From Holothuria leucospilota (Eukaryota): a stretch of 64,000 nt of DNA. The notes beneath the pieces are model-generated. The model was not told the DNA's origin. It did no database searches and worked only from the letters and a program-made list of their open reading frames with translations. Within the stretch, counting starts at the first letter, position 1. Each line of letters opens with the position of its first letter. A program made the translations under genes and the position numbers. The DNA lies in assembly GCA_029531755.1 (NCBI GenBank), contig CM055964.1, forward strand, positions 36,034,802 through 36,098,801, in the 5' to 3' direction. Shown in pieces: positions 6,231 through 57,574 of this stretch.

Positions 6231-6368
<138 letters not shown>

Positions 6369-7979: not shown

Positions 7980-8112
<133 letters not shown>

Positions 8113-31656: not shown

Positions 31657-31886
31657 CTGCGTTGAGAAAAAAAGAAAACATCGTTTCAAACACAATCTCA
31701 TTGCTCTTTATTACAGTTACATAATCATCATGGTAGTGCCAGCAAGTTGGATCTCATTCAGAAGCATTACTACAGTTAGTGCAGGGTTCTCCACTGGTCT
31801 GTTTTCTGTCCGGGGGCTCTTGTGATCGCCTTGAGGGGTCTAAGGGTAGGGGGACATGGGGAGGGGGTGTCCCCTCCCCTTAAACC

Positions 31887-31906
31887 CCCTAACCCTAACC
31901 CTAACC
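31887..31906. repeat. Interstitial telomeric repeat (CCCTAA)3 flanked by inverted G-rich palindromic arms (gggggacatgggg ... ccccatgtcccc), in MVP intron 1.
   Basis: ccctaaccctaaccctaacc lies within gggtagggggacatggggagggggtgtcccctccccttaaaccccctaaccctaaccctaaccccatgtccccttcccc. Confidence 0.85.
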
Positions 31907-33037
31907 CCATGTCCCCTTCCCCTTTGGGAAAATTTTGACAATTTAGGGGGGCTTAGATTGCAAATGGTGCAATTCTACGGCCTTGTTCTTAGCCTTCCCT
32001 ATGTGTTTAAATCTGGGCATTTTGTGGGCATTTTTTTTTTGCACATTGCATTTTCTTAATATCTTTGACTTTACTTGCAGATCTGAAGCTCTAGTTTCCA
32101 CTTGGACGTATTCAAGAATGTAATAGTTCACTTTAATGTAAATTTCGGGTGAAAATCGGGAAACCTAGGGGACAAAACAGCTAGTGGAGAACACTGTTAG
32201 TGATAAAGGAACAAGGCAGAGAGAAAAAAGGGGGGGGGGGTGTGTTGGTGACAACTATTCTGACACCAGCATAAGTATTTCATTATCCCAACATCAAGTT
32301 GAAGTCATGAGGCCATAGTGTTTGACCCAACATCTACGATGTGGACTGTATGATTGATGCTGAGTAAATGAATATTTGAATCCTATCCTTCATTTGGCAT
32401 TACTTAAATTCTTTTACTTCCTTGTTAATGTCCCTCCCCACTCTACACTCTTTCCCCCTTCCCATCATACTGATGTTTTAAAAGCTTTTTACATTATGCC
32501 CTTTTAATTTTTTTTCACCAATATGTCACAACTACATGCCACGTTTTTAGAATATGACCAACATTTAATATAATTACTGTACAGCTATGGCAGCTGGGCC
32601 CCATTTCATGAAGAGTTATACTCTATCTCATGTTTGATCTATCATAAAATAGTACTATTGAAATGGTTTGAATCAACAGGTGGGGTACAACGGAGGGGGG
32701 ATGTTCCCCACTTCTGAAAGTGCAGAGGATTTATCCCCTCAACTTCTTTCCAAAACCCAAATGAAAATAGCAGGCACATGTGTTTGATTCCATAGCTTGC
32801 AATATGAATTCAATGGAATCAAACTTTATAATGATGGAAATGCCATTTAAATTAAAATTATAAATTTAAATTGTGGGGAATTGATTCAGATGGATTACAC
32901 CACAGATCATCTCGCCTCCAACTTTTTCCACGGACCTTGAGGGAGCCCTGGATACCTCTCTTCTAGGGTTTTGCTAAATTCGCACTTAGAAATAGTTCTG
33001 CTTAAGCCCATGACCCCTCCCCCCCCCACTTTTTAGA

Positions 33038-33330
33038 GGGTGCTGACCAGGGATGTAGCTAGCCAAATTTGAGTGCCGGGTAAAAGTCTGATCTGGGGAA
33101 AGCACCTCACCCCACTCCATGGCATCTACCACATTTTTCAGCCATTAAATTTTCATTTTTCCCTCATTTTACTTTAGGGAGTAAATTTAGGGCTAGTTTT
33201 AGGTCCTGGTTGGCAGATTTGTGGTGGGCGGGGAGACGTGTGTTTGCCTGGAGTGCCGGGTGGAAATATCAAGCGCTGGGTGTGGCTGCCCAGCGCCGCC
33301 CACCGTAGCTACATCCATGGTGCTGACACC
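33038..33330. mobile_element. MITE-like element of about 290 bp with TIRs GGTGCTGACCAGGGATGTAGCTAGCC / CCGTAGCTACATCCATGGTGCTGACACC (MVP intron 1).
   Basis: Imperfect inverted termini, with internal repeats of gagtgccggg. Confidence 0.5.
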
Positions 33331-34059
33331 TTGACTGAAATCAAACTTAAGAACATCAACCCTCCATGAAACTGGGACCTGGCTCTCCATGGAACAGAGA
33401 CCTGGTCACATATTATCTCTCTCCCCCCCCCCCCACACCACTATCTGTGATACTTCAGACCATGTGTGTGTCGATTGTTCTTGAGAGTGATATGTCCAGG
33501 GTGCTGGGGCTCCTTGCATCTTGTTCTGTTCATTTTAAGAGCCCCCTTCCATGTACGATAATCATAACATGATAACAGGATAATGGAATTTGTCACATTT
33601 TAGCCCCCTGGTTACTTTATCAGGAAGTACACTGCACATGAGAAATCAGTAATATGACATTCTGTGAACTGCTGCCAACCTTACAGTAGTTTTATTTGTG
33701 TAAAAGGATAAAATGAATATTCTTAACTACAGTAGGTGGTACACTACGTTAATTTTCCATTGTGAATATGACACAGTTCTTGTCACCTCAAAAGTAGCTC
33801 ACAGTTGATGCAAGACTAGTTCCAGGTCTACTCAAAAAGTTCCAGGGACCAAAAGCTACTGCAGCTCTCATTAAATTCACCCCAATCAATTTACATGCCC
33901 CTACAAAACAAGTTGAAAGCAAAGGCAACAATCTACCATCAACATTATGATGGATGACTATCAAATGTTTGACTTATTCATAAGATTACTGATTGATTAA
34001 TAGCCTGGTTTTGAAGAGGAACATACAATTCTCCAACTCATAACCTAGATGTACCCATA

Positions 34060-34480
34060 ATTTGACTATCACTAAAGAAAAATATTTGCCACAGTTAAAG
34101 GCTAGCCTACTTGGTTTAATCCAGACTCCAAAATTTGCCATCAGTATTATGGTGGATAATTACCTAGCTTATAAATCAGTTGCTACATGTGCAAACAGAA
34201 CGAATGTGCAGGCTAACATTAGAAAAAGAATTCTTCAACTGATGACCGTCAGATTAGATGTATATACTAGAGGTCTGACTGTCAGTAAAGAAAATATTTG
34301 TCACAGTTAATGCTCTTTTCAAAGATCTAATTTTAGTATAAATATGCCTTCACATAAGTGGCTAATTATTAATGGAAGACTGCAAATCAGTTTGCACACA
34401 GACAGCATGATTTCCAGAGAAATATAAGACGAGGAATTTTTTAACTGATGACCACAAGATTAGATACACCTATATTTTTG
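34060..34480. repeat. Two tandem copies of a family of units of about 205 bp (..tatcactaaagaaaaatatttg.cacagttaa...caaacag.a...aattcttcaactgatgacc..agattagatgta..) in MVP intron 1.
   Basis: Direct self-similarity between 34060-34265 and 34265-34470. Further copies lie at 35960-36070 (partial), 36430-36640, 36640-36860 and 41695-41830. Confidence 0.8.
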
Positions 34481-36082
34481 ATCGTTACTAAAACAGTAGT
34501 CATAGCTAATGATCATGTCAGAGGAATTCTCTGTCTCAGATAGGCTTCAGTAAATCTCTAAATAATTCCTTTTGTTATGTAAATAAGATTTCAAGTCAGT
34601 ATAATCTTCCATTACCTTTGCTCTTCATCAACTAATATTGTGAATGATGAGAACTTCCATCATTGAGCCAATTCATAGCATGACTGTGTTGTAGTTTAGT
34701 GCATGAACTCCCTGTGTGCCCTCATTTTATCATTGTGTCATGCTTCCTTAATGAGAGAAACGGACATACAAGATCCATTGAGATGGCTGTGGGGGGTGAA
34801 ACCAGCACTAGTCAGGATACCTGCTGCAGGGTTAGTGAACAAGTGGACAATGATGTGGTTTGAATTTTATGCAATTATATTTCAGCATATAACATCCTTC
34901 AAATGATCATGGCTGTGAGAACTTCCTTGCTTCTTTTAATGAATATTCATTTCATGTCTAAGTCCCACTATTCAAAGTGAGGTGGACTCCCTAACATCAA
35001 GGGGAACGTGTAAAGTGAGAAAACCTAAAGAAAGCACAATCACTTTAGCGCTGGATAACCCGATGTCAGCTCCTACAGATTAAAGTGACCTTGTGTCTGT
35101 TTCTATGTTTAGGTGCCTATGATGGTTTGGTCAAGTACAGTGAGGTGGGACTTGACCCTTGGTTAAATTATGTGATATAGTAACTAGTGTCACTGCAGAG
35201 TGAGGACAATCACTGGAGGAAAGGCAGACCCTCACACTCATGTAAGGAGGTTCTTATGGTACTGTATCTCAGTCAGTTAGATGAGATTTAACGACACACC
35301 AACATGAATGTGTTATAGTGTCAACTAGATAAAAAGGTAAAGTTTAAATGTGGTCTAAAATACAGTACAAGTCCTTCCCTTTACAGTAGTTGCCTCTTAT
35401 GACAGGCCAGAAATACCGTGGTATCTCAGTCGTCAATGATGAGTTGGAAACACCAAAGAAGCCCTTGACCATGGTTTTGACCCTTGGAACCCCTTTTGGG
35501 ATCAAACCCCCAGACCCCAGTGATGATTTCTTCCATCTCGCTTGCACAATGTAAGCTCGACACTGGAGAGAGAATCACTTCTCTCTGCTGATAACACCCT
35601 AGTTAGAGTTAAATGGAAGTGTGTACTTAAAACTTGGTCAAACCCACTAAGTGGGTGGAGCCAGTGCAGTAACTGGGTATGTTGGGTGCGTGTTACCATT
35701 GCAATGTTCACTTCGATGACTGACAAACATACAGTACAGTATGAAAGACAACATCGTAATTGCTTCTGCATGTGTGACCAGATATGATGACAAAACAATC
35801 ATGATGTTGCGTACACATGTGAAAATCCTGTTCGTTTAGTTGCACAATTGGGGGATGATAATTCCAATGATGAGAATATGCACGTATGACTGAGGCATAA
35901 ATAGGTTACACTTTAAATCTGAAATTATTGGTCCTCACTATTTTGATGGATGGTTATTGATTATAAACTGATTAAAAACAGTTACATGTGTACACAGTCA
36001 AAGATTGCAGAGGAACATATGACCATGAATTCTTAAACTGATGACCAACATAAGATTAGATGTACTGTGCAGAAACAGTACC

Positions 36083-36420
36083 AGGGTTTCTGCCAAAGGG
36101 GGGAAAGGGGGGGATTTGTCCCCCCCTTTCCAGAAGAAGGTGGGTAAAATCCCCCCCTTTTCATTTCCATAAAAATTAAAAAATTGTCCATATCTTGGTT
36201 TCTTACTTAAGAAAAGGGGACCTTTGCAGCAATGTTTGGACTTTCATAAGTAAATGGCCTTTAAAACCCTTCAAAATGCACCTTATAGGGGTCTTGAAGC
36301 AAGCTTTTGTCCCCCTGAACCCACTTGTAACTTTAGCCAGGGACAGCATCAGTTTGGACTAGGGGTTTAGGAGCAATTAATCCCCCCCTTTTTTGCATTT
36401 CTGGCGGAATCCCTGAGTAC
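36083..36420. mobile_element. MITE-like element of about 340 bp with TIRs CAGTACCAGGGTTTCTGCC / GGCGGAATCCCTGAGTACTG (MVP intron 1).
   Basis: Inverted termini beginning with CAGTAC (Tc1/mariner-like). The interior is rich in G/C homopolymer palindromes (gggggggatttgtcccccc). Confidence 0.45.
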
Positions 36421-36429
36421 TGTATGTTT

Positions 36430-36860
36430 GACTATCACCAAAGGAAATATTTGTTACAGTTAAACATTGCCATCTTTAATTGGTTTTAGTCTACAACTTC
36501 CCATCAGTATAATGATGAATGATGAATAGTTATTATTGATTATAAATCAGTTCATGCGCAAACAGCACAATTTTCCAAAGGAACACAAAACAAAAAATTC
36601 TTCAACCGATGACTACCAATAGATGTACTGTACTGTACCTGCTGGCTTGACTGTCATTGGAAAAGAGGTTACTGTTGTCAAACTCAAAAACAATGATAGC
36701 CTCACTTGGTTTAATTTTTAAGTCTACAATTTGGCTTACGTATTATGACAGCTGATTGTTTAAGTATTGATTAAAGAGTCCATGTACAAACAGTACAAGT
36801 TTTAGAGAAACAAAACAAAACAAACTCTTCAACTGATGGTCATTATAAGATAACTGTACG
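36430..36860. repeat. Two more tandem copies of the same family of units of about 205 bp.
   Basis: ..ctatcaccaaaggaaatatttgttacagttaaacattgcc...caaacagcacaattttccaaaggaacacaaaacaaaaaattcttcaaccgatgactaccaatagatgtactg.. and the following unit. Confidence 0.8.
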
Positions 36861-39309
36861 TGTATTTGATTTTCACCTATGAAGTAAAATATTTTCCCAG
36901 TCAATCAGCACTCATGTCATGGGCTACGGTAAAATCTATCAATATTCGCTTCTCTTGTGAAAAAAAAGTTGAGTGAATTCTTTCCTTATCCTAAATTCTC
37001 TATACAGTATTTGTTTTTTTTTTTTTTTGGGGGGGGGGGGGTCTGAAATGGTCTGATACCCCTGGACTGCACTAGGCAAGTTTACTTATCTTATACCCTT
37101 CTCTTTTTGTTCTACTACCAGTTAGAACAAGCCAGCTGCCACTTCACTCCCATAATTGGTTTAGTTTACCTGTAACACCTCTAATAACCTCCTGAGTTAA
37201 GAGAGTTAAAACAGTTAAAGTATATTTGTCTTCATCGTTCTCTTTGTTTCCAGTACGAGAGCTCATTTTAAAAGCCCCCATGCTCCTGCTACACTTTCTT
37301 TAAAATGGTTAAATTTCTCAACTTAAATTTGCCTTTAATACACTACGTATGGTATGATCATAGTTAATATACACATCCCTGGTTGGGAAACTCAGGGAAC
37401 TGCACTATGTTGAGATCCTGATTTTCAGTAGTCATGTGACACTAACCATACACAAGGCTGGTTGATTAGCACTCGTAGCACAAGGCGTGACATACACCAC
37501 TATGGAAGTACTACCTACCTACCTCCGAAGTAGTACTTCTGTAGCACTACTTGTGAACCTTTATCAAACGGTAATTATGAAATTTTTTTGTAAAAGTTTG
37601 GTTTTCGTTACTTTTCAGTCTTAAAACCTCCAAACACCGATTGGTATTTGCTTTAGAGTTACCGCTATAGTTAGTAGCCTACCTACTACATTACCAACTT
37701 CACCGATAAAACCTCCGCAATTGTCAACAGACCAAAATAGGGAAGCTAAATTTTTCAGGGCAAAAAATAGCAAGATAAGTGGAAAATTAGAGAGACTGGT
37801 AGATTTTCATCTAAATATAGCCTTGTATTGCCAACTCAAATCGATCGTACAGTTGTATACGCCGCGTTATTCGCTACAACTTGTGTATGAATTGAAGCTC
37901 CCTGGTATTTCCACCGTTGCAGCTACTCGTACGCCGTATTGTATGCATATCTCACTGCCCAAGGTGTCGGCATGCAAACTACCAGAGTCTCCCGGTAAAA
38001 CCAGGGGTAAAGTTGGCATGTCTGTGTCAATTTGAGAACGACTCACTTTCTTCCTAAAGAGTGGAATTCAGTGCTTATATCAAGTATATCATGATTGGGT
38101 ATTTTCCCTAGAAATGTAACAGTTAACCGACTTGGTAACGTCAGATAGTGAACCGCCTACCCCCTTTTACTTTCACACGTGATAGTATTTAGCTATAACG
38201 CTATACATCAATGCAAAATTGCAGAGTACGGTAGTCTAATTCTGTTCAAACAAGAAACGTGGGGGTTGTGGGCCATGGTTTTCTTCGTTTATTTGAATGT
38301 TCACAAATACTTACTGATTCGGAAGCTTCCTGAAACCCTTTCATCCCTTGAACCAACTTCAATTTATTTCCAAGAATGGCTGAACAATGCAACACTCAAT
38401 GCAGCCATATTGCTACTCGATCGATCGTGTGCACAGTCAATGCCATGTGATGCACTTTTCTGCACGTCTCAACATAGCTACTCGGCTTGTATGTGGTGTG
38501 TACAGGTTGTACGAAAAGTTTCCTAACCAGGGATGTGTATATTAACTATGGTATGATGAAATCTGTAATTTCTGCCATTATTCAAACTACCCCTGTATGG
38601 TTTTTTAAACATTGCTCCAATAAAGATAGTTCTTGGGAAAACCTATTGTGACACCCAGATGTACTGTACTTATACAATTCATGATTGCTCTACCTCAACA
38701 ACAGGACACAGGACTCCAGGGTATCCACTTATGTGCCCATTATGTCAGACATACTTACCAAATCACATACTGTATGTAAAAGTAATTAAGTTACAGTAAT
38801 CTCACATATCTGGGCTGTGCATAAATTTAGAAGGTGTTCTATAAGTACATACTGAACTACAGTGTACTGTACAGTAGGCCTAAATCATACATCTCAGCAG
38901 ATACTACTGTATCACCCATGATGTAGAGGTCTGAGGGTCGAGAAGTCGGTCAGTCTGGTTTGTTGTCCCTTGGGGACGTAGCTCCTTCGGGGAGCAGAAC
39001 TCCTTCCAGAGTGATGTTTGGTCCCCCCCCCCCGGGCTCTTTGCCAGAGAGTCGAGGGGACTTTTGAAAAAGTACATCTCTGCAGATACTACTGTATCAT
39101 AAGCAATCATTGCAACTCTTGATATATTTGTATGGATCCCCTCTCAGTGGTACATGCCTGAGGTACATACACTGTTTGCTGTGACAGGGGTTCACCATAA
39201 CACATGCCCCGAAATGTCCAACAATGCAAACTGTCATGCTCAAAGACAACAAATTACAGTACATTCTTTAACTACAACAATCAGTGAACTACTTCAAACT
39301 GTAATGTTG

Positions 39310-41295
39310 AAAATGGGTCATTCTCTGCCAACTCAACAAATTTTCAGAAAATCATGGTCGGGCACCGACCCAGATTTTGCTGAAAAAATTCCCTAGTGTC
39401 GTTCAAGTAGTAGATAGAACACACCAAAAATTTTAGGTCAAAATTCTTAGCCGTTTGGGAGTTACGGCCCATTGAAAAGTGGCCCAAACCCCCTTCTTTG
39501 CATGCCCAAATTGCATGGTCCACATCTCGGTCATTTTTGAGGGCCTATATCTATACAGAAAATAAAGATACAATGCTGAAAACACCTACCTGGGATAATT
39601 TCTGCCCAAATTTTCAGAATCTGGCATCAAAAACACTGTATCTGGCTTAATTATGAAGAGAATGAGCTCTAAACATTGCATTTCATTTTAGGCGTCAATG
39701 TGATTTATGATATTTGGACCCCTGTGGTTCAATCGACTTCTATCAGATAAGTACCATTTTTCATATACATAATATCTGTTGGGTGCACTTTGCTCTCACA
39801 AAGTTAAGGACCTTTAACAACTTCCATGACAAAATGGTTGGGGGTCAAACATGGTCCCAGAGCCAAAAAACCAAAATTTTGATGTTTTTCGGGTTGACCT
39901 TTGACCTTGTTTATCACCTCCCATGAACTTGAAAATTTTTTTTTCATTAGCTCTAACCCCCTTTTATATTTAGTTAAAATTTCAGAGAGGGGTTTTTCCT
40001 CATTCTTGCCAAATCATTTTTTGAGTTTTGGTAGAAGGTGGTCAATGTCACATACTGTACACAATGTACAGTATGTAGGCCTACTGTACATATGCATATA
40101 GTACAAACTACTCATGTAGCACACATGACCTTACATCATGGCCTGTTTGTATAATTTCAACCACAGAAGTAATACTATTTTTATTTAAAGTTATCTACTT
40201 TGGAAAAGACATTTTAAGTAACTTACAGTACAAACTTGTAATAATTGTACTATTAAATTTAACAGTATGCACTGTATGTACAGTATACAGATACTGTATA
40301 ATACAGCACTTTACACATATTAACAAATGTCTAAGAAATCAAAGGGGCTGTCGTGCCCATTTAAGACTTGTGGAAAGATATATACTTATTTTTAAAGCCA
40401 TGAGCTGTGCTTAAACAAGAATAATGATCATTAATTGTATTACCACACTGCAAACAAGGTATATGTGAGCTATTGGGCTACACTTGTGGTACACTCACTA
40501 CTAATTTCTGTATATACATAGTGTACAGTATATACACAGTATATACACTGTACACTGCTATGTGAAATGGTGCACCACCTACCCAACTCAAAGATTTTTT
40601 AATTAAAAATGGGGGGAAACCCCTCTCTGAAATTTTAACCAGATATAGAAAAGGGATAGAGCTTTTGGTAGAAAAAAATTTTAGTTCATGGGAGGTGATA
40701 AACAAGGTCAAAGGTCAACCTGAAAAATATCAAAATTTTGTTTTTTTGGCTTTGGGACCATGTTTGACCCCCAACCATTTTGTCATGGAAGTTATTTCAG
40801 GTCCTTAACTTCGTGAGAGCAAAGTGCACCCACCAGATATTATATATATGAAAAATGGTACTTATCTGATAGAAGTTGGTTGAACCACAGGGGTCCAAAT
40901 ATCAAAACTCACATGGACACCTAAAATGAAATGCAATGTTAAGAGCTCTTTATCTTCATAATTAAGCCACATACAGTGTGTCTGAGGCCAGATTCTGAAA
41001 ATTTGGGCAGGAAATACCCCAGGTTGGAACTTATAGCTTTGTATCTTTGTTCTCTGGGAAGTTATAGGCCCTCAAAAATGATCGAAATGGCATGCGCACA
41101 AATTGGGCATGAAAAGATGGGGTCCGGGCCATTTTTCAATGGGCCATAACTCCCAAACCGTTTGGAATTTTGACCTGAAATTTTTGGTGTGTTCTTTCCA
41201 TAAGTGGAACTATGGTTCATAAAAGTTTCAGCAAAATCTGAGTCGGTGCCCGACCGACCTATTTGTTGAGTTGGCAGAGAATGACCCAAATATAA
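39310..41295. repeat. Large inverted duplication (hairpin or foldback) in MVP intron 1. The arms of about 770 bp lie at 39310-40075 and 40520-41295, separated by a spacer of about 445 bp rich in tgtacagta motifs.
   Basis: The left arm (ctctgccaactcaacaaattttcag...ggcaccgacccagattttgctgaaa...) reappears as a reverse complement in the right arm (..tcagcaaaatctgagtcggtgcccgacc..ttgttgagttggcagag). The mirrored pseudo-ORFs 39154-39396(+) versus 41062-41319(-), and 39901-40101(+) versus 40478-40711(-), confirm the inversion. Confidence 0.9.
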
Positions 41296-43404
41296 GTTCA
41301 AAAGTTCTACATGAAACAAGTTTCAAGTAACAGTCTTTACAGTAAATCAATCCTATTAGTAAGGTGTCCATCCAATACTGTTGAGGTATTAAACCACATG
41401 TGGCAAGTTATGGGCTGATAGGGGAAGGGGTCATCACTAGATTTTTGAAAGTTGCTTATGTCATTGTCCATTGGGTAATATGTAAATGAAAAAAAGGGAG
41501 TGAAGTGGAAACTTAACCCTGTGATTAAGAGCCAATGAATTGTATGTATACTGTGATTGCATGATGTTTCTTCTTTAGATATTGCCCTGCAATGGCCCCC
41601 ATGATTAAGAACTGAATAAACAGTTATACCCTGTATGCACACAGCAAGAGTTTGCAAAGGAATGTCAGATGATGTATCTACTGATGACCAGACCATTGGA
41701 CATTTGATTATCACTAAAGGAAAACATTTGTCATGGTTAAAAAAAACAATCTTTCAATTAGTTTGATTTTTAAGTCTGTATACACACGATAACAAGAACA
41801 AAACAAAATTCTTTTAAGTCACCCATTCCTCAAAGTCTGTCCAAACAACTGCCAGGGGAATGTGATTGGTCAAAGATTTTGTTTAACAATCATGCAAAAG
41901 AGTGCTGGAAATTGGTACTGTAACAGGTGGAAATGACAATTACTGTACAACCAACCAATGAAGACAGCAAAGAAGGATTAGCCAAAAATCACACATCACC
42001 CACATGCCATGTACTATATATAATGCACTTTTCACAGAGCTCTTGTTTATGTCCCTGTTAAATCATCTTAAACAATGACACTTTTAGAATGGGTTGTCTT
42101 AGTCAATCCTCTGACATTGCTATGAGTACACCTACCTCCCATCTAGCTGACATTTAATGTCCAGGTTTACTTATTTATCAACCTTTCATGTTACAGATTT
42201 ATCCTTGTGTGGCATCATGACCAATTTAATGTTGACCCTGCGTGTCCAGCTTCTAGGTTCAATGTTTATCCTCATGTACCTACGCCTATCCATAGAAATA
42301 AAAGTAAAGGAGAATGCTGCACTGACACAATGCATCCCTGCATGTTTAACCGGTGAAGCCACAAAAATTGTGAGGGCGCTTCCGCTGCATGGCAAAAGAC
42401 TGGTTGATTGGTGTGTCTCCGTACATACAGTGTGCATTCTGCTGCAGAAGTTATAGCTCATTTTATCCGTTTTTCAAAAGATTAGGAGTAATTTTCACAA
42501 CAGGAATAAGTCATGGTGCCTTAAGTATTTTGTTTTATACTCCTAAATTTCTTGTGAACTTGTAGTTTCTTTGCCAATTCCTTGGGCAAAAGCAATGATG
42601 TGATATTTGTATTACGCGCTGGTGCTCCGTTGCCGTACAGCCTAGCCAAACCAGTGGCTTCAGGCCAGATCGGCAGATGTCATTCTCCCTTACTTTAATT
42701 TCTTTGGGCCTATCATATAATCACCTATTGGCAATAAATTCTAGGACTTGACATGTGCTGCTATAGTGTTTTTAGTATGTTAGTGATAAAAGCTATCAAA
42801 AAAGAAGAGCTTGATTCAGATGGAAAAACACTAAGAATTTTGACTTGACTTGTAGAGCATCACCAAGCAATCTTGTGAGCCTTGACCCTGCACCGTACAC
42901 AGCTCAGCAATAAACCCTCACAGATACCCAGTTTGTGCTATCCCTTTGTTATCTTTTGTGTGTGCAACTCGTCTAGCTACACACACTGTCAAACATTTGT
43001 AAGAAAAATGTTTTTGAAGCCTGTTTAACTCAAGTTCTACATCAGAGATAAGCTTCCATTGATTTAAGGGAAATATTGTGTCAAAGGTGCAATTTTCATT
43101 CTGAGCCTTAAAAACTATGACTTATGGGTACAGAATGATAGGCAATTCAAAATTAAGTGGCTGGAAAAATTTCTTCTCAAAAAATGAGGTTTTTATTTGA
43201 AAAAAGAAATTCACGGCTTTGATGCTCATGGGTGGAAAAAATCAGGGATGTGGGAAGCTTCTTGTGAGCAAATTTTGGTATGCGGAGGGAAATGTGAGCA
43301 GCTGGAGGGAATTTGACTTGAACATATTCTATATTAAAACTTGTAAAAATTTTGGGAAATTTGACTTCTGTGCTGGGAGCCTGGGAAATAAACATATTTT
43401 CTAG

Positions 43405-43562
43405 CCATAGACCCTTTTCCAAATAGCAGTTACAATGGATTGTGGGATAGAGGTTTGGTTCACATCATTTTTGGCCACAGTAAATTGCCATTGACAAAAA
43501 TGGTGTACACTAAAACTCTATCCCATAATCCTTTGTAATTGCTATTTGGAAAAAGGTCTATG
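43405..43562. mobile_element. MITE family A copy 1, about 158 bp, with TIRs and flanking TA (Tc1/mariner or Stowaway-like).
   Basis: The TIRs are GACCCTTTTCCAAATAGCAGTTACAATGGATTGTGGGATAGAG and CTCTATCCCATAATCCTTTGTAATTGCTATTTGGAAAAAGGTC, with TA on both sides. Confidence 0.7.
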
Positions 43563-44484
43563 TTGAAGCTCCTGTCTAATCACCCAAACTTTCCTTGACA
43601 AGCTTACTGAAGTAACTCTTGTAATGCATAATAATTTTGGGAGGAAGAGTTACCTGTACTGCTGAGTTTGTTAGTGAGAATCAATGGTTTTCCTCTATGT
43701 GTCACCTTGATGCAACAGAGATGCAATATTTCCCTTTCATACTTTGAATCTAGATCTATCTGTTGCCAAATCACTGGCAGCAACTACTTTGAGCAGTGGT
43801 CATAAAGTAGCCCCCATAATTCAGTGTTGAGTAGCTGAGGGCTAGAGTGTCTGGGTTAGGGGTAGATCAAACTGGGTATCCACAACTTCTCTTTCCGTGA
43901 AATTCCATGCATAAAATTAAATTCTGTTTTTTGCCAAGTTTTTCCGCAGTGGACAATCCTTGGCCCTACTTCTCATAAGGTAGACACAACTCAAGACTAG
44001 GGAACTTGAGCCAGCATTCTAACTCACAAGGTACACCTTGGGTGACCTGTGTAGGATTTGTCCCTCTCTCTCTAAATCCAATATTTTCATTTTGACAAAT
44101 TTTTCTGAAATGGAAGAAATCTGACTCAATTTTCACCCCACACCAGTAACCTGAAAATACACAGGGTCCATAGGGTCCCATATAAACTTTCAGTATACTC
44201 ACCAGCACTGGGGGACTGAAATTCTGGACAAGTATGCTTTGTAGTTACAAAAAGTGTAAGGGTTTATGATTGGGGTGGGGGTTTCTATGCCTAAAAGAGG
44301 CTTTCAATACCATGTAAGCCCACCTAGATGCCTCTCGCAGTACTTAACCAACCATCAGTCATCACGAACAGTTGACAATATAATGTTCACATATAATCTT
44401 TACACCCCAACCACAGACTCTGCACACAGTTTAACTAACTGATGAGAAAAATCCACCTCAAAATATAATATCAGTTTTACTAAC

Positions 44485-49700: not shown

Positions 49701-50510
49701 AAATCTCCTCTTATTGCATTACAAGCACCTCTGAAGACGTTTTATACTATATATAATAACTATTACAAACAATAGGTAAAGCAAGGCGAAGTTCTCCTTG
49801 AATTCCACAATTCACTAACAAAAATATTGTCACATGATCAAAATAGGCCATTCATGAACTAGAGTGACAGGATACACCCACTTTGTTTGGGGTGACTGCC
49901 TACTGCCTTTAATATGTACGGACTTGCTGAAGACAAGCTCCGAAAAATGAACAATTTGAATACATCATATTTTTTCTGCCTGTCATTTAGAGTTTCCAAG
50001 CAACATAATATGCCCGAGGTATTACTTTTCCAAAGACCCGTGACGAAAGGGTATGTCAACTACAATTTTTTACCCTAATCCAGTGGCTAATTCTCAAAGT
50101 GGTACCGTCCTCCGGAGGGCGTTGGGAAGTCTCAGGTGGGCGCTACAGAGTACATGGAGAATAGGGGCACTGACACTGATTTGGGGGTCCATGGTGATTA
50201 AGACACATCACTGAAGCAATTTAGGACACAATAAGGCATCCAGGGTGTCTGTTCCTCCGCTTCTCACTAAAATAGTGAACGTTCGTAATCTCGCAGAGTT
50301 ACACCACAGGCGTTCGAAACACTACGTACATATACTACACACTATACATATATAACACACGGTCGTGCAATAGTCTAGTATAACACACGGCTGTGACGTC
50401 GCAATCACTGCGCGTACGTACAAACTATGCCGCAAGTCAATAATGATCAACGCAACTTTGGGGATCGCACATTGCATACCGTATATGGCAAGCCGAATGT
50501 TCAATAAATA

Positions 50511-51380
50511 GATAATCCAAGATTATAGGTCGAGAATGCAAGATTATCGGCCGAGAATCCAAGATTTTCGACCGATTATCTTGGATTATCAGTCGATAAT
50601 CCAAGATTATCAATGATAAACCAAGTTTATCACGAGATAATCCAAGATTATCAAAATAACTTGGACTATTGATCGATAATCCAAGATTATCGACCGATGA
50701 TCCAAGATTATCAAATTAATTCGGTATATCAGTCGAAAATCTTGGATTATCTAATGATTTTAGTGTACCTCATTCGATAAACTTGGATTATCGATTGATA
50801 ATCCAAGATTATCGTCGAGAATCCAAGATTATCAATTTTTTTCCGATAATCCAAGATTATCGGTCGAGAATCCAAGATTATCGGTCGATAATCCAAGATT
50901 ATCGGTCGATAATCCAAGATTATCGATCGACAATCCAAGATTATCGACCGATAATCCAAGATTATCGATCGACAATCCAAGATTATCGGTCGAGAATCCA
51001 AGATTATCACATTCACTTTGATAATCCTAGTTTATCTGTTGATAATCCAAGATTATTAAAAAAAATTGATAAACCCGGTTCATCATCCGAGAGTCCAAGA
51101 TTATCGTTTGATAATCCAAGATTATCAAAAATTATTTTGATAAACCTGGTTATCGGTCGAGAATCCAAGATTATTAAAATATTTTTCGATAATCCAAGAT
51201 TATCGGTCGAGAATCCAAGATTATCGAAATATTTTTCGAGAATCCAAGATTATCGGTCGATAATCCAAGATTATTAAAATATTTTTCGATAATCCAAGAT
51301 TATCGGTCGAGACTCCAAGATTATCAAAATATTTTTCGATAATCCCAAGATTATCGGTCGAGAATCCAAGATTTTCAAAA
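50511..51380 (+). repeat. Satellite block I of about 40 copies. The 21-bp unit is GGTCGATAATCCAAGATTATC, with a higher-order variant of about 52 bp containing an AAATATTTTTC spacer.
   Basis: Direct tandem repetition is visible in the sequence. The unit core GATAATCCAAGATTATC is an imperfect palindrome made of two inverted GATAA motifs. Confidence 0.95.
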
Positions 51381-51839
51381 TTTCAGTACAGTTCACTGAA
51401 GGTTTTTTCAGTAGCCTATACTGAATCTTCCGTGTTTTATTATACACCAGTTCACCAGGGCATGCGATGAAATGGTCCAAAATTGAGATAAAATGGATCA
51501 CAATATGTTATTTTTATCATCAGTTCTGTCGGTTGTGTTATCACCATTGCTATACAGAGAGGAGAGAACTTCTCTGCTATCGATCGATACTTTTCTGGGT
51601 ACAGTATCACGTCTGCTCCATGGGCTGCAACGGTAAGACGCGTATCATAACGTTGTCAGCATAGGCTTGAATAGCAACTCATAAAACGTAGCTACATCAA
51701 TTCCCCAACGGTCTTTCCTATGCAGCACGACAGCTCACGTAACCTTCCCACCAGGACCTTCGCTAGAGAGGGATGTGGGGATGTAGGGCCGTCGCTAGAG
51801 CGGGATGGGGTGTGACACCATCCCCCCCCCCCCCAAAAA

Positions 51840-52070
51840 AAAATCATCCACACAGTCGGCAAAATCCTGCACTGGTCGGCAAAATGAAGGAAAGGGGGAA
51901 GTGCAAACGAAGGAAAGTTAGAGGGAAGAAGAAAGAGAAAAAAGAGAAAAAAAGGGGAAAGAGTAGAGGGAGAGAGAAAGACCGAGCGAACAGAGAAAGA
52001 ACAGGGGAGGGAGGGGCAAAGCAGGGCAAAAGAAAGCCGGGGTTGGTGCAGACGGAAGACAGGAGATTGG
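51840..52070. repeat. Low-complexity purine-rich (GA/AG) tract. The long ORFs here on both strands are artefacts.
   Basis: gaaggaaagggggaagtgcaaacgaaggaaagttagagggaagaagaaagagaaaaaagagaaaaaaaggggaaagagtagagggagagagaaagaccgagcg.. Confidence 0.9.
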
Positions 52071-52169
52071 AATGCATGTGTAGACAACGTTTATCACAAT
52101 GTTTTCAAAGCCCGTAAGCAACACCTTTTGAAACTTGAAACATATTCTGTCGGCAAAAGAGCTACATAG

Positions 52170-54420
52170 GGCTTTGCAGTGTCACTGCATACTAGAGGAG
52201 TTCATCGTTCATGTGGTATTCTGGCACTGAGTCGGTAAATTCTGCACCAGTCGGAAAAATGAAGGAAATGTGCGGAAAAGAAAGAGGAAAAGAAGTGAAA
52301 GGAAGAGGACAATTTCTGTAATCAGAACCCCAAATCCCCTTCTCACCACTCCTCGACATAGAGCTGTCGGAACTTGGGGTCATTTCTGCGATAAAATTCA
52401 AAATTTTCGGTATGCTTTGCCCACTCTTCCTCAGTTTTGTTACTAATAGCTAAGTATGGAACAAACCCTTTTAATCTTTTCAAGTAACTTAATAACTAGA
52501 AATTATCGTTTTATGGAAATGCCGGGAATTTCATCTCATTTCGCTAAACTAAGTTAATGTTCTCTTTAGTCTGTCTTTCGGTACGGCTGGTGACTCGAGG
52601 AGGAAAGTACAATTTAAAGGCATTTTCCAGTGGCTTTTCAAAAGGGTCCCATGTGAAAGAGCAAAAAAAAACAGTTCATTCCCTCTAAACCCGTAGCAAT
52701 ACTCTTTTCCTTACTCGAGATATCTAATATTAAAGACTACTTATTTTTGTCAAAAAATACCTCTAGTTCTCATCAAGGTCACAGAATGTTATGTAAAGTG
52801 GGCACATTGCCTCAGGTTTCTTTTGTTTTCCTTTATAATTGAATGTCCTGTTGTCCTTGAAATTTGATACTGTTGGAATGTTTGAATAGCTTTTCATGTA
52901 GGTTTAGCATAAATCTACACCATATGTACGACATAACAAACAAAGTTACTAAACTTTCTCTACAACAGTGTTAATATCGTAGTAAAGAAATTCAATGCTT
53001 TGTCAAATTAACTTGAATGTGCCGGGATGACATCACTGATTTCCCATAATGCACTTTCTTGTGAGAAAAAATTGCATTTGTTTGAAAATTAGTATCTTCA
53101 AAACGCTACAAGCTATTGAGATGCGGTTTTCACCTCCTAGAAGAGAAAAAGTTTCTGCGTTTTTTGAAGTCATTGATTTTTATCACTGGCAAATCCCTTT
53201 AAGTTGTGCCTGATAGAGCCCAACTGCCTGGACAATTGACCTATATAAGCTTTAAATTGGTACAGATTCTTTTTAGTGTAAGTTTACCCAAAAATTTCGC
53301 GCGCTTTGCAATTTCACAGTTTAGATTTCGAGTAAAACCTTAAATCAGGTTGAACTATTTTCCTTGAGTATACAGTGGCGGCGGAACGGAGGTGGGGTGG
53401 GCCTTGGGGCTCAGTCCCCAATGAAAAGAGTAAGGGGGCTAAACGTATGTTCAGCCCCCCAATATTTGTTCAACTCATCTGATATGTATAACCATTTTTC
53501 ATAGATTGATTTTTTTCTCATTAGTTAAGAAATTGCAGACATAAGATCCATATTTCAAGGCTGGATGCATGCAGCTTAGAACACTCGGGAAGTGCCGTTT
53601 CTGGCCATCTGGAGCCAAAATTTTCTTGTATGCTCCGCTTCAACTGATGGTGGCGCTCCGCTTAGATAGTCTTGCTCGCACCAAGCCCCCCCCCCCCCCC
53701 CAATATTTTTCCGTTCCGCGGCGCCTGCGATTATATATAAAATTTTATGCAATTTATGCCTCGCAATGGCAAAGATTCAAAATAACACTATATAAAGTGC
53801 GCAACTCGGCTCATGAAGTATTAAGTGATATCATGTAAAATATGCCCTGAAATGGCATGGGATAATAAGTCATATCCCCTTGTCACCACCTCTGCGACAG
53901 AGGGCTGTCGAAGCTTGGGTGGCTGGCATGGCCCAGCCCTCTGAAAATTCTGTCGCCACCCATGATCTGTTTACTTATTTTGGCTTTCAAAGAGTCATTT
54001 CTTCAAGGAAACCCAAGATTTCCGGTACGCTTTGCCCACTCTTCCACAGTTCTGTTACTTATAGTTAAATATAATACAAACCATTTCCACCTTTTCAAGT
54101 AACTGAAGAAGTAGAATTCATGAATTTATGTAAAAGTTGGGAATTTCACCTCATTTCACGTTATTCAGTCAATGTTCTCTTGGGTCTGTTGTGCGATACG
54201 GCTATAGTGACAAGAGGAGAGAAGTACAATGTAAGTTATGCCCGATAGGGACCAACTGCCCGGACAATTGACCTTGATTAGCTTTTAATAATTATACCGA
54301 TTCTGTTTAGTGAAGGATAACCCAAAAAATTTTCGCTCGCTTTGCAATTTCACACTTTAGATTCTGGGGAAAACATTAAATCAACCCCGAAACTACGTTC
54401 CTCTAGTATATACACCCATT
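52170..54420. repeat. Diverged tandem segmental duplication in the foldback middle segment. Paired blocks include 52340-52620 versus 53890-54240 and 53200-53380 versus 54240-54400.
   Basis: Shared strings: ..ttcggtatgctttgcccactcttcctcagttttgttactaatagctaagtatggaacaaaccc.. versus ..ttccggtacgctttgcccactcttccacagttctgttacttatagttaaatataatacaaacc.., and gcccaactgcctggacaattgacctatataagctttaaattggtacagattctttttagtg versus ggaccaactgcccggacaattgaccttgattagcttttaataattataccgattctgtttagtg. Confidence 0.75.
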
Positions 54421-55039
54421 TTTATGAAATGTATGTCCCGCAATGGCATGGTTTAGTACACAGAGTTTCTTCAGATCCCTCCTCACCATCCCCTTGACGG
54501 CATCTGGGCTGTCGGGGCTTCAGGTCGCTGCCTCCGCCCGTCTGGCCACCTGTCGGGCAAATCCTGGCGCCATCCCTGGCACTCAAAACTAGTTAGAAGT
54601 AGCCTACAGAATGATATTAGAAGAGATTTTTTTTTTCATTTTTTGGTCGTTTACCAAAGGATAGAGCTCTTCCAATTGTCTTCCAGTGAATAATCAGACA
54701 GGATGCTATCAATATCAATATCTGTCTCATATGGTGCAGGTAGGCCTACTATCATTAAGTTCCCTTCGCCCTTCGCGCTAGTCACTTTAACCATCTGTAA
54801 TGGTAAACTATATAGGTTTAAGGATGAAACAGCGCTGTTAACTTTTGCGATCATCTCAAGCAGCCTTCTTGACTGGCTTCGTGATCTTTAACGTAGTCCT
54901 GTCAATGTATGTGACACATACTGTAGCACACTGCAGCTTTCAACGCATAGAGGATAACCTGAACTGACACCGAATTTTACAAAATCTGAAACAAACGAAA
55001 TCTGATCAATAAGGCCTCTAGAACCAATTTAGGGCGGTC

Positions 55040-55340
55040 TTATGAGCTTATATTGCAGGAGCTTCCGGGGGCTTCGCTCCCTGGACCCCCACCGGGGCCC
55101 TGCCCCTGGACCCCGCCAGGGTGCCTGGCGCGGGCCCCTGGACCCCAAGCGTGCAAACTCGCGCTTCGCGCTCGTGGTGCACCTTCGGTGCACTTGTCAC
55201 ACCCCTCCATGTCAGTCGGGGGAATCACAGGTTGTGCCCCCCACCTTCGAAATCCTGCACACGCCACTGCGGCACCACACCCCCTTGATAAATGCTCTGG
55301 CGACACCCCTGCTTCCCACCACTCACGTATAGCCATTTAA
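55040..55340. other. CpG-rich, GC-rich island of about 300 bp inside the middle segment of the foldback-like structure. It carries ORFs on both strands as a composition artefact.
   Basis: Local GC content is far above the surrounding AT-rich DNA. There are many CpG dinucleotides (ccgggggcttcgctcc, ggcgcgggcc, ctcgcgcttcgcgctcgtgg) and repeated ccctggacccc motifs. Confidence 0.6.
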
Positions 55341-56249
55341 TGCATACCACTGTCTTCTTCCAATTTTATGATGCCCTTACCTCTATTCTATCAATTTGTC
55401 TCTCCCGCCTTTTGAAAGACCTTTTTGTTCTCTTTCCAATGATACCTGCCAGACTCATAACCTAAATTTACCGTTCTCTGTCGGACCAGGAAGCTGTCAC
55501 TTATAGTGGCAGCTCCCTGGTCGGACCAAGGGTTTAAAGAAGTATACTTCTTCAATTTTTGCAATTTTGTCGGTAATGTGATATGCCACAGTGTTTTCCT
55601 GTATAGAGCCCTGAAGAGTACCTAGCCCTCTGTGGGCTGGGGGTTGTAGAATATGCCCACGGTATTTCCCGCCTGTCGTAAGAGGCGACTAAAGGGAAGG
55701 ACTTGCACTGTCAAAACTTTGCTTGACACTATATGACACATTTGTGTTGGTGTGTCGTTAAAGTAACTAACTGAAGAGTCCCTACTTTGAAAGCGGTGCT
55801 ACACACCTTTAACCTATTTCCTTATGGTTGTCTCTCGTAAAATTCGAAAGATAACAAATTTTTCTTACTATCTATATAAACTTTATTGCCATTGGTTCTT
55901 TTTCTTTGAAGGACCACGAAGATATCGAATGAGAATCTGTGTTATATTTCGAGCATTCCCTTCTTTCTCCCTGTAATATCTTGCTACGTAGCAGGCTGTA
56001 CGGCATATTCCTTGTTTAGTTGGAAAGCGAAGAAGCTGAGCAGACAGTCCGCTCAGCGGGTCGGTATTAAATCATGCTAGCACAGTACACAGTGCATACA
56101 ATGCTGAGTGCGCGGTCAAGCTCCGCACACACTCTAAGGAATTTCGTTCTCACCAACGATGGTCCTCGATTCTAGCGATAAACGGTCAAATTTCTAGAAG
56201 CACACACGTGGCGAAAGGTTTTGATATGCTACTCTTAGTATACACGGCC

Positions 56250-57470
56250 AATTATCATGGATTGTCGTTTGATAATCTTGGATTCTCGACCGATAATCTT
56301 GGATTCTCGACCGATAATCTTGGATTCTCGACCGATAATCTTGGATTATCGAAAAGTATTTTGATAATCTTGGATTCTCGACCGATAATCTTGGATTATC
56401 GAAACATATTTTGATAATCTTGGATTATCGACGGATAATCTTGGATTATCGACCGATAATCTTGGATTCTCGACCGATAATCTTGGATTATAGAAAAATA
56501 GTTTGATAATCTTGGATTATCGACCGATAACCTTGGATTATCGACCGATATTCTTGGATTATCGAAAAAAAATTTGATAATCTTGGATTCTCGACCGATA
56601 ATCTTGGATTCTCGACCGATAATCTTGGATTCTCGACCGATAATCTTGGATTCTCGACCGATAATCTTGGATTCTCGACCGATAATCTTGGATTATCGGA
56701 AAAAAATTGATAATCTTGGATTCTCGACCGATAATCTTGGATTCTCGACCGATAATCTTGGATTATCGGGAAAAAAAATTGATAAGCTTGGATTCTCGAC
56801 CGATAATCTTGGATTCTCGACCGATAATCTTGGATTATCGAAAAATATTTTGATAATTTTGGATTATCCGTCGACCGATAATCTTGGATTCTCGACCGAT
56901 AATCTTGGATTATTGAAAAATATTTTGATAATCTTGGATTCTCGACCGATAAACCAAGATTATCGGTCGATAATCCAAGATTGTCGGTCGAGAATCCAAG
57001 ATTATCGGTCGAGAATCCAAGATTATCGGTCGAGAATCCAAGATTCTCGACCGAGAATCCAAGATTATCAATCGAAAATCTTGGATTATCTGGCCAAATG
57101 TGCAACAAAGTGATATTCCAAGATTTTCGCGTGATAAACCAGGTTCGACGAGCCGAATGTTCATTAAATAGATAATCCAAGATTATCGTTCGATAATCTT
57201 GGATTTTCGTTCGAGTATCCAAGATTATCAAAATAATATTGCCTATCGGGCGACAATCCAAGATTGTCTGGATAAACCTCGATTTTCATTTGATAATCCA
57301 AGATTATCAGTTGATAAACCTGGTTTATCATTGATAATCCAAGATTATCACGAGATAAACTTGGTTTATCATTGATAATCCAAGATTATCGACTGATAAT
57401 CCAAGATAATCAGTCGAGAATCTTGGATTCTCGACCGATAATCTTGGATTATCAGTCGATAATCTTGGAT
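56250..57470 (-). repeat. Satellite block II of about 55 copies of the same 21-bp unit, mostly in reverse-complement orientation (CGATAATCTTGGATTCTCGAC) with internal orientation switches.
   Basis: Orientation flips occur at about 56945, 57060, 57160 and 57410 (ccaag versus cttgg cores). The ORFs 56488-57261 and 56574-57113 are frame artefacts of the 21-nt (7-codon) periodicity. Confidence 0.95.
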
Positions 57471-57574
57471 TTTCTATTTATTGAACATTCGGCTTGCCAT
57501 AACCGTACGTAGTAGACGCGTAGCTAGCAAACGACAAACCATGGAGCACGGACAAACTCCAAAACACAACTTAA

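Follow-up and report, generated by a model that had tools for sequence, protein, structure and literature searches.

Does the inverted duplication of about 2 kb in an intron of the major vault protein gene (MVP) of Holothuria leucospilota specify a hairpin RNA with a role of its own, or is it an inserted mobile element that is transcribed along with its host gene? The anatomy of the repeat, its intronic position, and its folding potential were demonstrated within the 64-kb stretch of DNA analyzed here, which we call the window; the account of its origin and fate given below is read from sequence features and from analogy with other animals.

Anatomy of the inverted repeat and its host intron

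An inverted duplication was borne out at the place where the original prediction had put it, and was confirmed as real and well beyond chance by repeat finding, blastn, and MAFFT. Repeat finding returned a gapless arm pair at 39523-40027 and 40585-41089 (505 nt, 87% complementary) plus two outer pieces, and a blastn search of the region against the window aligned 39314-40100 with 41288-40511 (82.3% identity over 795 columns, E = 0). In the MAFFT alignment, the outer edge of the homology is sharp at 39314/41288, to within one base on either side, whereas the inner edge is gradual and passes into TGTACAGTA-like sequence near 40056/40555. The whole unit occupies positions 39315-41287 (1,973 bp) and consists of two arms of ~740 bp with an AT-rich spacer between them; the earlier figures of about 770 bp for the arms and 445 bp for the loop are thus replaced by ~740 and 498 bp, the latter value falling to 410 bp if the inner ends, which are rich in the motif, are assigned to the arms. 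The features are as follows.

31657-44484, minus strand: host intron, first coding intron of MVP, 12,828 nt
39311-39314: candidate target-site duplication, left, AAAT, 4 bp (letters read directly)
39315-40056, plus strand: left arm, 742 bp (repeat finding, blastn, MAFFT)
39315-39341, plus strand: left terminal inverted repeat, 27 bp, GGGTCATTCTCTGCCAACTCAACAAAT, exact match to the right end
39341-39386: subterminal palindrome of the left arm, stem around GGTCGG...CCGACC (self-inverted match of 47 nt, 81%)
39664-39913: best-conserved arm core, ~93% identity to its partner at ~40699-40948 (binned identity)
40057-40554, no strand: spacer, i.e., hairpin loop, 498 bp, 31.7% GC, CpG observed/expected ratio 0.08
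40555-41287, minus strand: right arm, 733 bp, reverse complement of the left arm (repeat finding, blastn, MAFFT)
41261-41287, minus strand: right terminal inverted repeat, 27 bp, exact
41288-41291: candidate target-site duplication, right, AAAT, 4 bp (letters read directly)

According to a tblastn exon map, the host intron separates the exon carrying the ATG from the coding exon that follows, and its splice sites, read from the sequence, are GT at 44484-44483 and AG at 31658-31657. A distance of 3.2 kb separates the repeat from the donor on its upstream side, and 7.7 kb separate it from the acceptor on its downstream side. The gene was identified as MVP by Pfam Vault-domain matches of its homologues, the best relatives (Acropora, Strongylocentrotus, and a Logan transcript) being 74 to 76% identical. 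Exon map and splice sites uphold the earlier placement of the repeat in an intron that is transcribed as part of MVP, a minus-strand gene; "intron 1" is to be read as first coding intron, since a noncoding exon farther upstream, if present, would turn it into intron 2.

The alignment of the two arms comprises 744 columns, with 613 matches, 119 mismatches, and 12 gap columns, corresponding to an identity of 83.7% without and 82.4% with gaps and to a K2P distance of 0.184. The 85 to 90% identity stated originally was therefore too high: the arms are 82 to 84% identical overall, and values of 87% and ~93% are reached only in the 505-nt gapless stretch and in the segment 39664-39913, respectively. 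The longest perfect Watson-Crick runs between the arms (41, 38, and 32 bp) are found in this 250-nt core. In bins of 25 columns, the differences are clustered, with four blocks of ~56% identity, 87.5% identity in the remainder, and ~93% in the core, and they are overdispersed (index 2.87, a value reached in 0 of 5000 permutations). The first bin, i.e., the terminus, contains no difference, whereas the adjoining one contains 13 in 25 columns. The subterminal palindrome of the left arm folds with -23.1 kcal/mol (z = -5.0); its counterpart in the right arm, where a 9-bp alignment gap partly deletes the palindrome, reaches z = -1.8. Local palindromes in the core are no more stable than shuffled sequences (z of about -1).

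That this structure was generated during assembly, by a chimeric long read folded back on itself or an overlooked adapter, is scarcely credible. Both events do create inverted duplications in long-read assemblies, but the false palindromes are near-identical and spacerless, whereas here 17 to 18% of the columns differ, indels and replaced blocks occur, and a unique spacer of 498 bp separates the arms.

The GC content of the spacer is below that of all 198 windows of 498 bp in the remaining intron. The motif TGTACAGTA is enriched about 100-fold in the spacer compared to the rest of the window and forms three clusters (40053-40092, 40277-40299, and 40522-40555), so that it is common to the middle of the spacer and to both inner arm ends. 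Beyond this motif, no palindrome or direct repeat was found within the spacer, and the palindrome formed by the arms stops short of crossing it. The earlier description as a low-complexity, motif-rich spacer is thus to be corrected: the spacer is AT-rich, but most of it is unique sequence.

Origin of the repeat unit

We favor the view that the unit is a single old insertion of a DNA transposon of the cut-and-paste type, non-autonomous and noncoding, whose inverted ends are very long and imperfect, and would give this reading about an even chance. Points that favor it at the sequence level are the exact termini beside divergent blocks, the flanking AAAT, and the foreign spacer with its shared motif. 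Specifically, both termini of the unit begin with GGGTCATTCTCTGCC and are identical over 27 bp, and a pattern search allowing up to 3 mismatches returned two matches to the 27-bp terminus in the window, both exact. Identical termini beside divergent blocks are the pattern expected where constraint is limited to the ends bound by the transposase. Class II elements have terminal inverted repeats whose ends are sharp and match each other, and such repeats are present here. The AAAT direct repeat abuts both ends of the unit; when two sites are placed at random in this intron at a distance of 2 kb, the chance that a direct repeat of at least 4 bp abuts them is 0.6%, or 1.2% with two boundary choices. 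As a presumed 4-bp, AT-rich target-site duplication observed in one instance, it is weak evidence. Because the spacer is foreign in composition and carries the TGTACAGTA motif of the arm ends, arms and spacer are suggested to form one unit. The element would have entered the intron as such, giving rise to the AAAT duplication, and would now be immobile and evolving without constraint on pairing. A young foldback or hairpin transposon had been offered as an alternative in the original prediction; the transposon part of that proposal is the reading favored here, whereas its youth finds no support, and tandem subrepeats like those of classical foldback elements are missing from the arms.

The arms could instead represent two independent tail-to-tail insertions of one interspersed repeat of ~740 bp, e.g., a retroelement that is non-autonomous and ends in a simple repeat; independent insertion was the case named in the original prediction as refuting it. 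The spacer would in that event have belonged to the intron from the start, and the hairpin would owe its existence to chance proximity, as in an inverted Alu pair. This origin is possible, if rather doubtful. Both arms stop at the same element positions, and their inner ends enter a degenerate TGTACAGTA-type simple repeat; retroelement tails often run into simple repeats. Mosaic differences, with blocks of ~56% beside a core of ~93% identity, are typical of subfamilies with a conserved core, and two insertions are the commonest origin of intronic double-stranded RNA in animals (PMC5625713, PMC7006430). On the other hand, no direct repeat flanks either arm alone, no k-mer of at least 6 bp being shared at fitting positions, yet a 4-bp repeat flanks the pair; old target-site duplications around single arms could have decayed. 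Pol III heads of the tRNA, 5S, or 7SL type were not found: ARAGORN detected no tRNA, either in the region or elsewhere in the window, and an Rfam search at E ≤ 1 gave three chance-level matches only, none of them to tRNA, 5S, or 7SL and none reaching the family threshold. The window contains no solo copy or fragment of an arm and no further copy of the terminus, as judged by blastn, a profile of the two arms run with nhmmer, and the 3-mismatch pattern search. Finally, the composition of the spacer is unlike that of the remaining intron, and the arm-end motif recurs in its center.

The clustering of the differences bears on both readings, as it is not predicted by simple decay of once-identical arms. 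It would require that the arms were already unequal in the source element, that gene conversion occurred from arm to arm, or that the arms derive from different subfamilies; the last possibility would favor two insertions.

Of the features looked for in the case of SINEs, neither a Pol III-type head nor a target-site duplication per copy was found. Some further assignments were considered from the termini and rejected: a Helitron, since there is neither a CTRR end nor a hairpin at Helitron spacing; and solo LTRs or 5'-truncated LINEs, since target-site duplications per arm are absent and the outer ends are identical, without variable truncation. The Rfam matches to mir-299 and mir-308 (E = 0.2 to 0.5) lie in the TGTACAGTA motif and were attributed to chance. 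In six-frame translation, the arms possess one frame with few stops, which had no match among 5.8 billion proteins (stops treated as X), and the ORFs of arms and loop matched no Pfam family. An 80-residue stop-free ORF gave one match among 1.84 billion representatives (HMMER, E = 2.6e-6), namely a repetitive protein of 1,695 residues, which resembles a bacterial polysaccharide-export protein with SLBB-type repeats. A coding relationship was judged spurious because a single 43-residue match is counted six times, each repeat scoring only 25 to 29 bits. The lack of any coding or RNA-gene signal in these searches speaks for the noncoding transposon favored here.

Outside the window, neither back-translated patterns nor the 23-nt terminus had a match in the JGI metagenomes, and there was none in IMG/VR or the GTDB genomes. 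These metagenomic, viral, and prokaryotic negatives say little, as the collections do not include the genome of the source animal. They are relevant to a further explanation, which we consider unlikely, namely that once-unique intron sequence was locally duplicated in inverted orientation by template switching or foldback repair and has since diverged. An inverted duplication with a spacer is a typical product of these processes, and no other copy was seen in the window or the searched collections; however, the latter negatives weigh little here too, since the collections hold no animal genome. Moreover, uniform decay would be expected, whereas the differences are overdispersed, and neither the exact 27-bp termini beside divergent blocks nor the flanking AAAT is predicted. 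The lack of a second copy of the arm or the terminus in the 64-kb window also counts against the single transposon insertion favored here, whose mobility and family membership are conjectural.

Other repeats were noted in the surroundings. An unrelated foldback-type element with tandem subrepeats in its arms is located at 50.4 to 57.5 kb of the window, so that long-inverted-repeat elements occur in this genome. A reverse-transcriptase ORF at 6.5 kb has its closest named match in Holothuria leucospilota (52%).

The predicted hairpin RNA and its likely fate

The minimum free energy (MFE) of the MVP-sense RNA is -1117 kcal/mol, compared to -480 ± 11 kcal/mol for dinucleotide shuffles, and for either strand, folding yields the hairpin of the whole unit as the MFE structure. 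The predicted fold comprises 619 arm-to-arm pairs, with helices interrupted about every 7 bp. A long hairpin in the transcript, as anticipated originally, is thus supported by the MFE fold, but with 17 to 18% of the alignment columns differing it is not near-perfect. Long nearly perfect double-stranded RNA has been given a working definition of >300 bp at >96% identity (PMC7006430), and the unit falls short of this with 83.7% identity overall, ~93% in the best 250 columns, and a longest perfect run of 41 bp.

If the unit is a transposon insertion, the sole likely consequence would be the presence, in the intron of every MVP pre-mRNA, of a long RNA duplex interrupted by mismatches. Neighboring inverted repeats in pre-mRNA are the main substrates of ADAR hyper-editing across Metazoa, the working criterion being a partner in reverse orientation that is at least 65% identical and lies no more than 2 kb away (PMC5625713); the arms, with 82 to 84% identity and a distance of 0.5 kb within one intron, lie inside these limits. 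Intronic inverted duplicates are common, and those of >96% identity are depleted (PMC7006430). By analogy, Dicer processing and ADAR editing of the hairpin are both plausible, and passive A-to-I hyper-editing of intronic double-stranded RNA is the most likely outcome: as is typical of such duplexes in animals, this one would be bound by ADAR, hyper-edited, and then removed with the intron, and a minor fraction could be diced to small RNAs.

There is no evidence for use of the hairpin by MVP or the organism, i.e., for a dedicated function. A functional hairpin-RNA locus, whether a source of Dicer-dependent endo-siRNAs regulating a target or an editing-dependent or structural regulator of MVP, appears very improbable. 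The structure would form, the 250-nt core of ~93% identity contains perfect runs of Dicer length, and the hairpin RNA (hpRNA) loci of Drosophila demonstrate that such loci exist (PMC10317233). Against this stand the overall identity of 83.7% with four nearly unrelated blocks, arms that have no homology to MVP exons, to any possible target, or to anything else in the window, and a context in which nothing points to an independent transcription unit. The mismatches argue in the same direction. Those compatible with G:U pairing number 26 on the MVP-sense strand and 30 on the other, so that the transcribed strand shows no excess of them over A:C mismatches and no hint of selection for pairing; together with 8 differences of the CpG/TpG type between the arms, this pattern is consistent with unconstrained decay.

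We would give equally slim odds to the more general notion of a hairpin kept for a purpose, be it an intron-hosted hpRNA with endo-siRNAs arising from the ~93% paired 250-nt core, or a paired regulatory module. The latter rests on the motif AGGTCAAAGGTCA, a perfect direct-repeat-1 site of the nuclear-receptor type, which occurs once per arm in the best-conserved core (39895-39907 in the left arm). If the hairpin were kept for such a purpose, the conservation of the core beside decayed flanks would reflect constraint and not gene conversion. A satellite with a 145-bp unit, located 19 kb away, contains the AGGTCAAAGGTCA 13-mer in every unit; no extended homology between satellite and arms was found beyond the 13-mer.

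Overall, this is an ordinary kind of feature: animal genomes abound in intronic inverted repeats of mobile-element origin, and it is usually from these that edited double-stranded RNA arises. Its practical value lies in annotation, where masking of the 2-kb unit as a repeat is advisable and where A-to-G mismatches as well as multi-mapping small RNAs can be predicted to concentrate at this place in the MVP intron. If many copies with AAAT-type duplications existed in the genome, the unit would belong to an unusually long-armed, non-autonomous, possibly Sola-like family from a marine invertebrate, which transposon curators would find modestly interesting.

Comparison with known systems

Foldback-type elements with very long terminal inverted repeats include FB of Drosophila, Galileo, and the TU elements of sea urchins. 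The unit resembles them in that long inverted arms make up nearly all of it, with a short noncoding middle between the two, in being able to fold back, and in having sharp, identical termini with a short flanking direct repeat. Unlike those of FB and TU, its arms are free of tandem subrepeats, TRF reporting only micro-arrays of 2 to 3 copies of 7 to 11 bp, and of internal direct repeats; and unlike Galileo and FB, whose target-site duplications are longer, it has a candidate duplication of 4 bp.

A 4-bp AWWT target preference is a hallmark of Sola1 (PMC3845634) and also occurs in Sola2-type elements (PMC3627910). The single AAAT fits AWWT, and the terminus starts with GG, as in Sola1-type non-autonomous, MITE-like elements. 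In a comparison confined to the terminus, GGGTCATTCTC agrees with GGACCGTTTAT of Sola1_NA (PMC3845634) at 5 of 11 bases, and the terminal inverted repeats listed for such elements measure 12 to 36 bp, in contrast to 740 bp here. Repbase places non-autonomous elements by aligning terminal bases 1 to 11 with at most one mismatch (PMC4455052), a match that the single printed Sola1_NA terminus does not provide.

With the hpRNA endo-siRNA loci of Drosophila, the unit shares a long inverted repeat and a hairpin of several hundred base pairs. Those loci are dedicated transcription units with arms homologous to target genes and Dicer-2-dependent siRNAs (PMC10317233), whereas the present unit is a passenger in an intron, with much decayed arms and no target homology in the window.

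Inverted Alu pairs differ in being two insertions of a high-copy family, whereas a single-unit origin is favored here; the present arms are 2 to 3 times as long as an Alu, and their editing is a prediction only. Like such pairs, the arms are reverse-oriented, intronic, less than 2 kb apart, and 65 to 90% complementary, and are predicted to form a long imperfect duplex (PMC5625713, PMC7006430).

The inverted repeat and its host intron

With a vertebrate MVP sequence as query, tblastn recovered a complete exon set for this gene on the minus strand, extending from 44609 to about 19420. The joined exon translation matches proteins with Pfam vault domains, named major vault protein by their sources; similarity includes Strongylocentrotus and Acropora, and the closest relatives are only 74 to 76% identical. 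The ATG exon ends in ...GAAAG, followed by the donor GTTAGT (44485/44484), and the next coding exon is preceded by the acceptor ...TCAACGCAG (31657/31656), giving an intron of 12,828 nt. Between the donor and the inverted repeat lie 3.2 kb, and 7.7 kb separate the repeat from the acceptor; the predicted location of the repeat inside an MVP intron is borne out by exon map and splice sites. "Intron 1" denotes the first coding intron here, an upstream non-coding exon being possible.

The repeat itself was recovered at its predicted position by repeat search, blastn, and MAFFT alignment. Specifically, the inverted-repeat search returned a gapless 505-nt arm pair (39523-40027 and 40585-41089, 87% complementary) plus two outer pieces, and a blastn comparison of 38800-41800 with the entire 64 kb produced a single inverted HSP (39314-40100 versus 41288-40511; 82.3%, 795 columns, E = 0), with no further arm copies at any other position. 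Homology in the MAFFT alignment stops at a precise base on the outer side (TGGGTCATTCTCTGCC... at 39314, ...GGCAGAGAATGACCCA at 41288), and on the inner side it fades into degenerate TGTACAGTA-like sequence near 40056 and 40555. The arms proper span 744 columns with 613 matches, 119 mismatches, and 12 gap columns. Their identity, 83.7% without and 82.4% with gaps, is lower than the 85 to 90% of the original prediction; the arms measure about 740 bp (770 bp proposed) and the spacer 498 bp (445-bp loop proposed). Transitions and transversions number 56:63 (K2P distance, 0.184), and the four longest perfect stretches measure 41, 38, 32, and 28 bp. Arm divergence and the unique spacer exclude an assembly artefact for all practical purposes.

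Features of the inverted repeat (forward-strand coordinates)
39315-40056: left arm, 742 bp
40057-40554: spacer
40555-41287: right arm, 733 bp
39315-39341 and 41261-41287: termini, 27 bp, the same in both arms
39311-39314 and 41288-41291: AAAT, adjoining both ends if the element is taken as 39315-41287
39333-39364, 39379-39415, 39507-39533, and 39996-40019: low-identity blocks, only 56% identical
39664-39913: core, about 93% identical
39341-39386: stable subterminal palindrome of the left arm (z = -5), partly deleted in the right arm

Internal anatomy and origin

The 27-bp terminus is absent elsewhere in the window, even allowing three mismatches. Among 200,000 random site pairs of the same intron, a flanking direct repeat of at least 4 bp arose by chance in 0.6% of cases, or 1.2% with two boundary choices allowed. 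The spacer, with a GC content of 31.7%, lies below every one of 198 overlapping windows of 498 bp taken from the remaining intron (mean, 39.2%; minimum, 32.3%); its CpG observed/expected ratio is 0.08, and neither a palindrome within it nor a counterpart elsewhere was found. Its center (40277-40299) and both inner arm ends share the TGTACAGTA motif, and of the 11 copies of this 9-mer that the window contains, 5 are located in the 540 bp of spacer and inner arm ends. Because of the identical termini, the flanking AAAT, and the low-GC spacer with its shared motif, we favor a single transposon insertion, albeit at about even confidence: the repeat would have entered as one unit with functional termini and most likely represents a dead non-autonomous DNA transposon whose inverted ends are long.

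Arm-to-arm differences show strong clustering (index of dispersion, 2.87; reached by 0 of 5,000 permutations), with 87.5% identity outside the four low blocks; had two initially identical arms simply decayed, such a pattern would not be expected. This clustering needs arms already unequal in the source element, gene conversion between the arms in the core, or a pair of copies that belong to different subfamilies. The third option keeps alive a rather doubtful rival, two independent insertions of one repeat, against which stands that no comparable direct repeat was found around either arm singly, whereas AAAT flanks the pair. A local inverted duplication appears less probable still. The broader statement, that this is a functionally neutral intronic inverted repeat derived from a repeat or duplication, can be made with high confidence.

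Searches of the arms found no tRNA-like head, Rfam family, or tandem subrepeats. The original prediction had offered a foldback or hairpin transposon as an alternative; the transposon part is the reading we favor, but arms without tandem subrepeats are unlike those of classical foldback elements and of the foldback-type structure at 50440-57500. Arm ORFs measure 47 to 85 amino acids, and in one frame the 241 codons include just 7 stops; no relatives of this pseudo-protein were found, nor any Pfam family in arm or loop ORFs. In an exhaustive HMMER scan, an 80-aa ORF matched only one repetitive protein of 1,695 residues, which presumably resembles bacterial polysaccharide-export proteins; the match was judged to be chance, a weak 43-residue similarity (25 to 29 bits each) added over six repeats. 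All scans for the unit in DNA-scannable collections (metagenome, viral, and prokaryotic, with no animal genome among them) were empty.

A 4-bp AWWT target-site duplication has been described as characteristic of Sola1 elements (PMC3845634), and Sola2-type elements are reported to have it as well (PMC3627910). AAAT fits this pattern, but the terminus agrees at 5 of 11 bases with the one Sola1 terminus compared, where the Repbase rule requires 10 of 11 (PMC4455052); a Sola link suggested by AAAT is only a lead.

Other repetitive elements in the window

A 145-bp tandem satellite occupies 59537-61048 (10.5 copies, 90% matches, some neighboring units 95 to 97% identical). The exact 13-mer AGGTCAAAGGTCA, a DR1-type nuclear-receptor half-site pair, occurs in eight of its units and once per arm of the MVP-intron repeat (39895-39907 and 40705-40717), i.e., 10 exact matches versus 0 expected; extended homology between satellite and arms was not found.

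Upstream of MVP, two blocks of about 1 kb of ATTATCGGTCGAGAATCCAAG-like 21-bp tandem subrepeats (50440-51400 and 56150-57500) lie inverted, 5 to 6.7 kb apart, with arm pairs 89 to 95% complementary (e.g., 50484-50654 and 57331-57501). The arrangement looks like that of a classical foldback-type element, about 7 kb long, and recalls the TU elements of sea urchins and the FB elements of Drosophila; two interior ORFs that were tested gave no Pfam match. Within it lies a direct two-copy repeat (52379-52588 and 53994-54203; 210 nt, 78%), and another joins 15603-15751 and 57663-57811 (149 nt, 82%).

Reverse-transcriptase ORFs at 6539-7755 (plus strand; Pfam RVT_1, E = 2e-4, under the cut-off) precede a GIY-YIG-like motif (VYLINCKDCGKQYVGETG; a weak match in Pfam) and have (TA)n on both sides (6160-6430 and 7920-8170). 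They are probably a Penelope-like retroelement in degraded form; among named proteins, the best relatives, at 52%, are from Holothuria leucospilota. Directly left of the inverted repeat, a GC-richer segment (38888-39099, about 48% GC) is bounded by 27-nt direct repeats (38888-38914 and 39073-39099, 96%), and its interior (38914-39022) matches 8968-9078 inverted (74% similar); this segment, too, is probably a small interspersed element. A 95-nt interspersed repeat (69 to 85% identity) occurs twice in an MVP intron farther downstream (21982-22076 and 22250-22344) and once in the host intron (43468-43562). Throughout the 64 kb, no tRNA gene and no Rfam family at gathering score were found, the MVP introns being without vault RNA or snoRNA.

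RNA folding and likely consequence

ViennaRNA predicts a minimum free energy of -1117 kcal/mol for the MVP-sense RNA of 39300-41300 and -1108.5 kcal/mol for the opposite strand, compared with -480 ± 11 for dinucleotide shuffles (n = 12; z of about -58). In the model, 619 of 796 pairs are arm to arm, and the longest unbroken helices, G:U counted, are 44, 43, and 38 bp. The anticipated hairpin in the MVP pre-mRNA is thus a real predicted potential, but not "near-perfect": the duplex would be rich in mismatches, the arms differing at 17 to 18% of columns.

A sequence-only test for selection on RNA pairing revealed no bias, with 26 G:U-compatible transition-type mismatches in the MVP-sense transcript versus 30 in the antisense. 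The 8 CpG/TpG-type differences would be as expected under unconstrained decay. Despite the strong predicted fold, a functional hairpin is very improbable, given the absent bias and the lack of any sign in the sequence of an independent transcription unit or target. The repeat is real but ordinary: decayed, non-coding, and long-armed.

Across Metazoa, ADAR hyper-editing typically affects sequences that have, within 2 kb of the same pre-mRNA, a partner in reverse orientation with at least 65% identity (PMC5625713). Intronic structures of this sort are common, and those longer than 300 bp and more than 96% identical are selected against (PMC7006430). The MVP-intron repeat falls within the former range and outside the latter, and by analogy the most likely consequence would therefore be that the intronic duplex is passively hyper-edited (A-to-I) and discarded together with the intron; its core may to some extent be diced. 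Compared with this hyper-editing context, the hpRNA loci of Drosophila (PMC10317233) offer a far weaker analogy.
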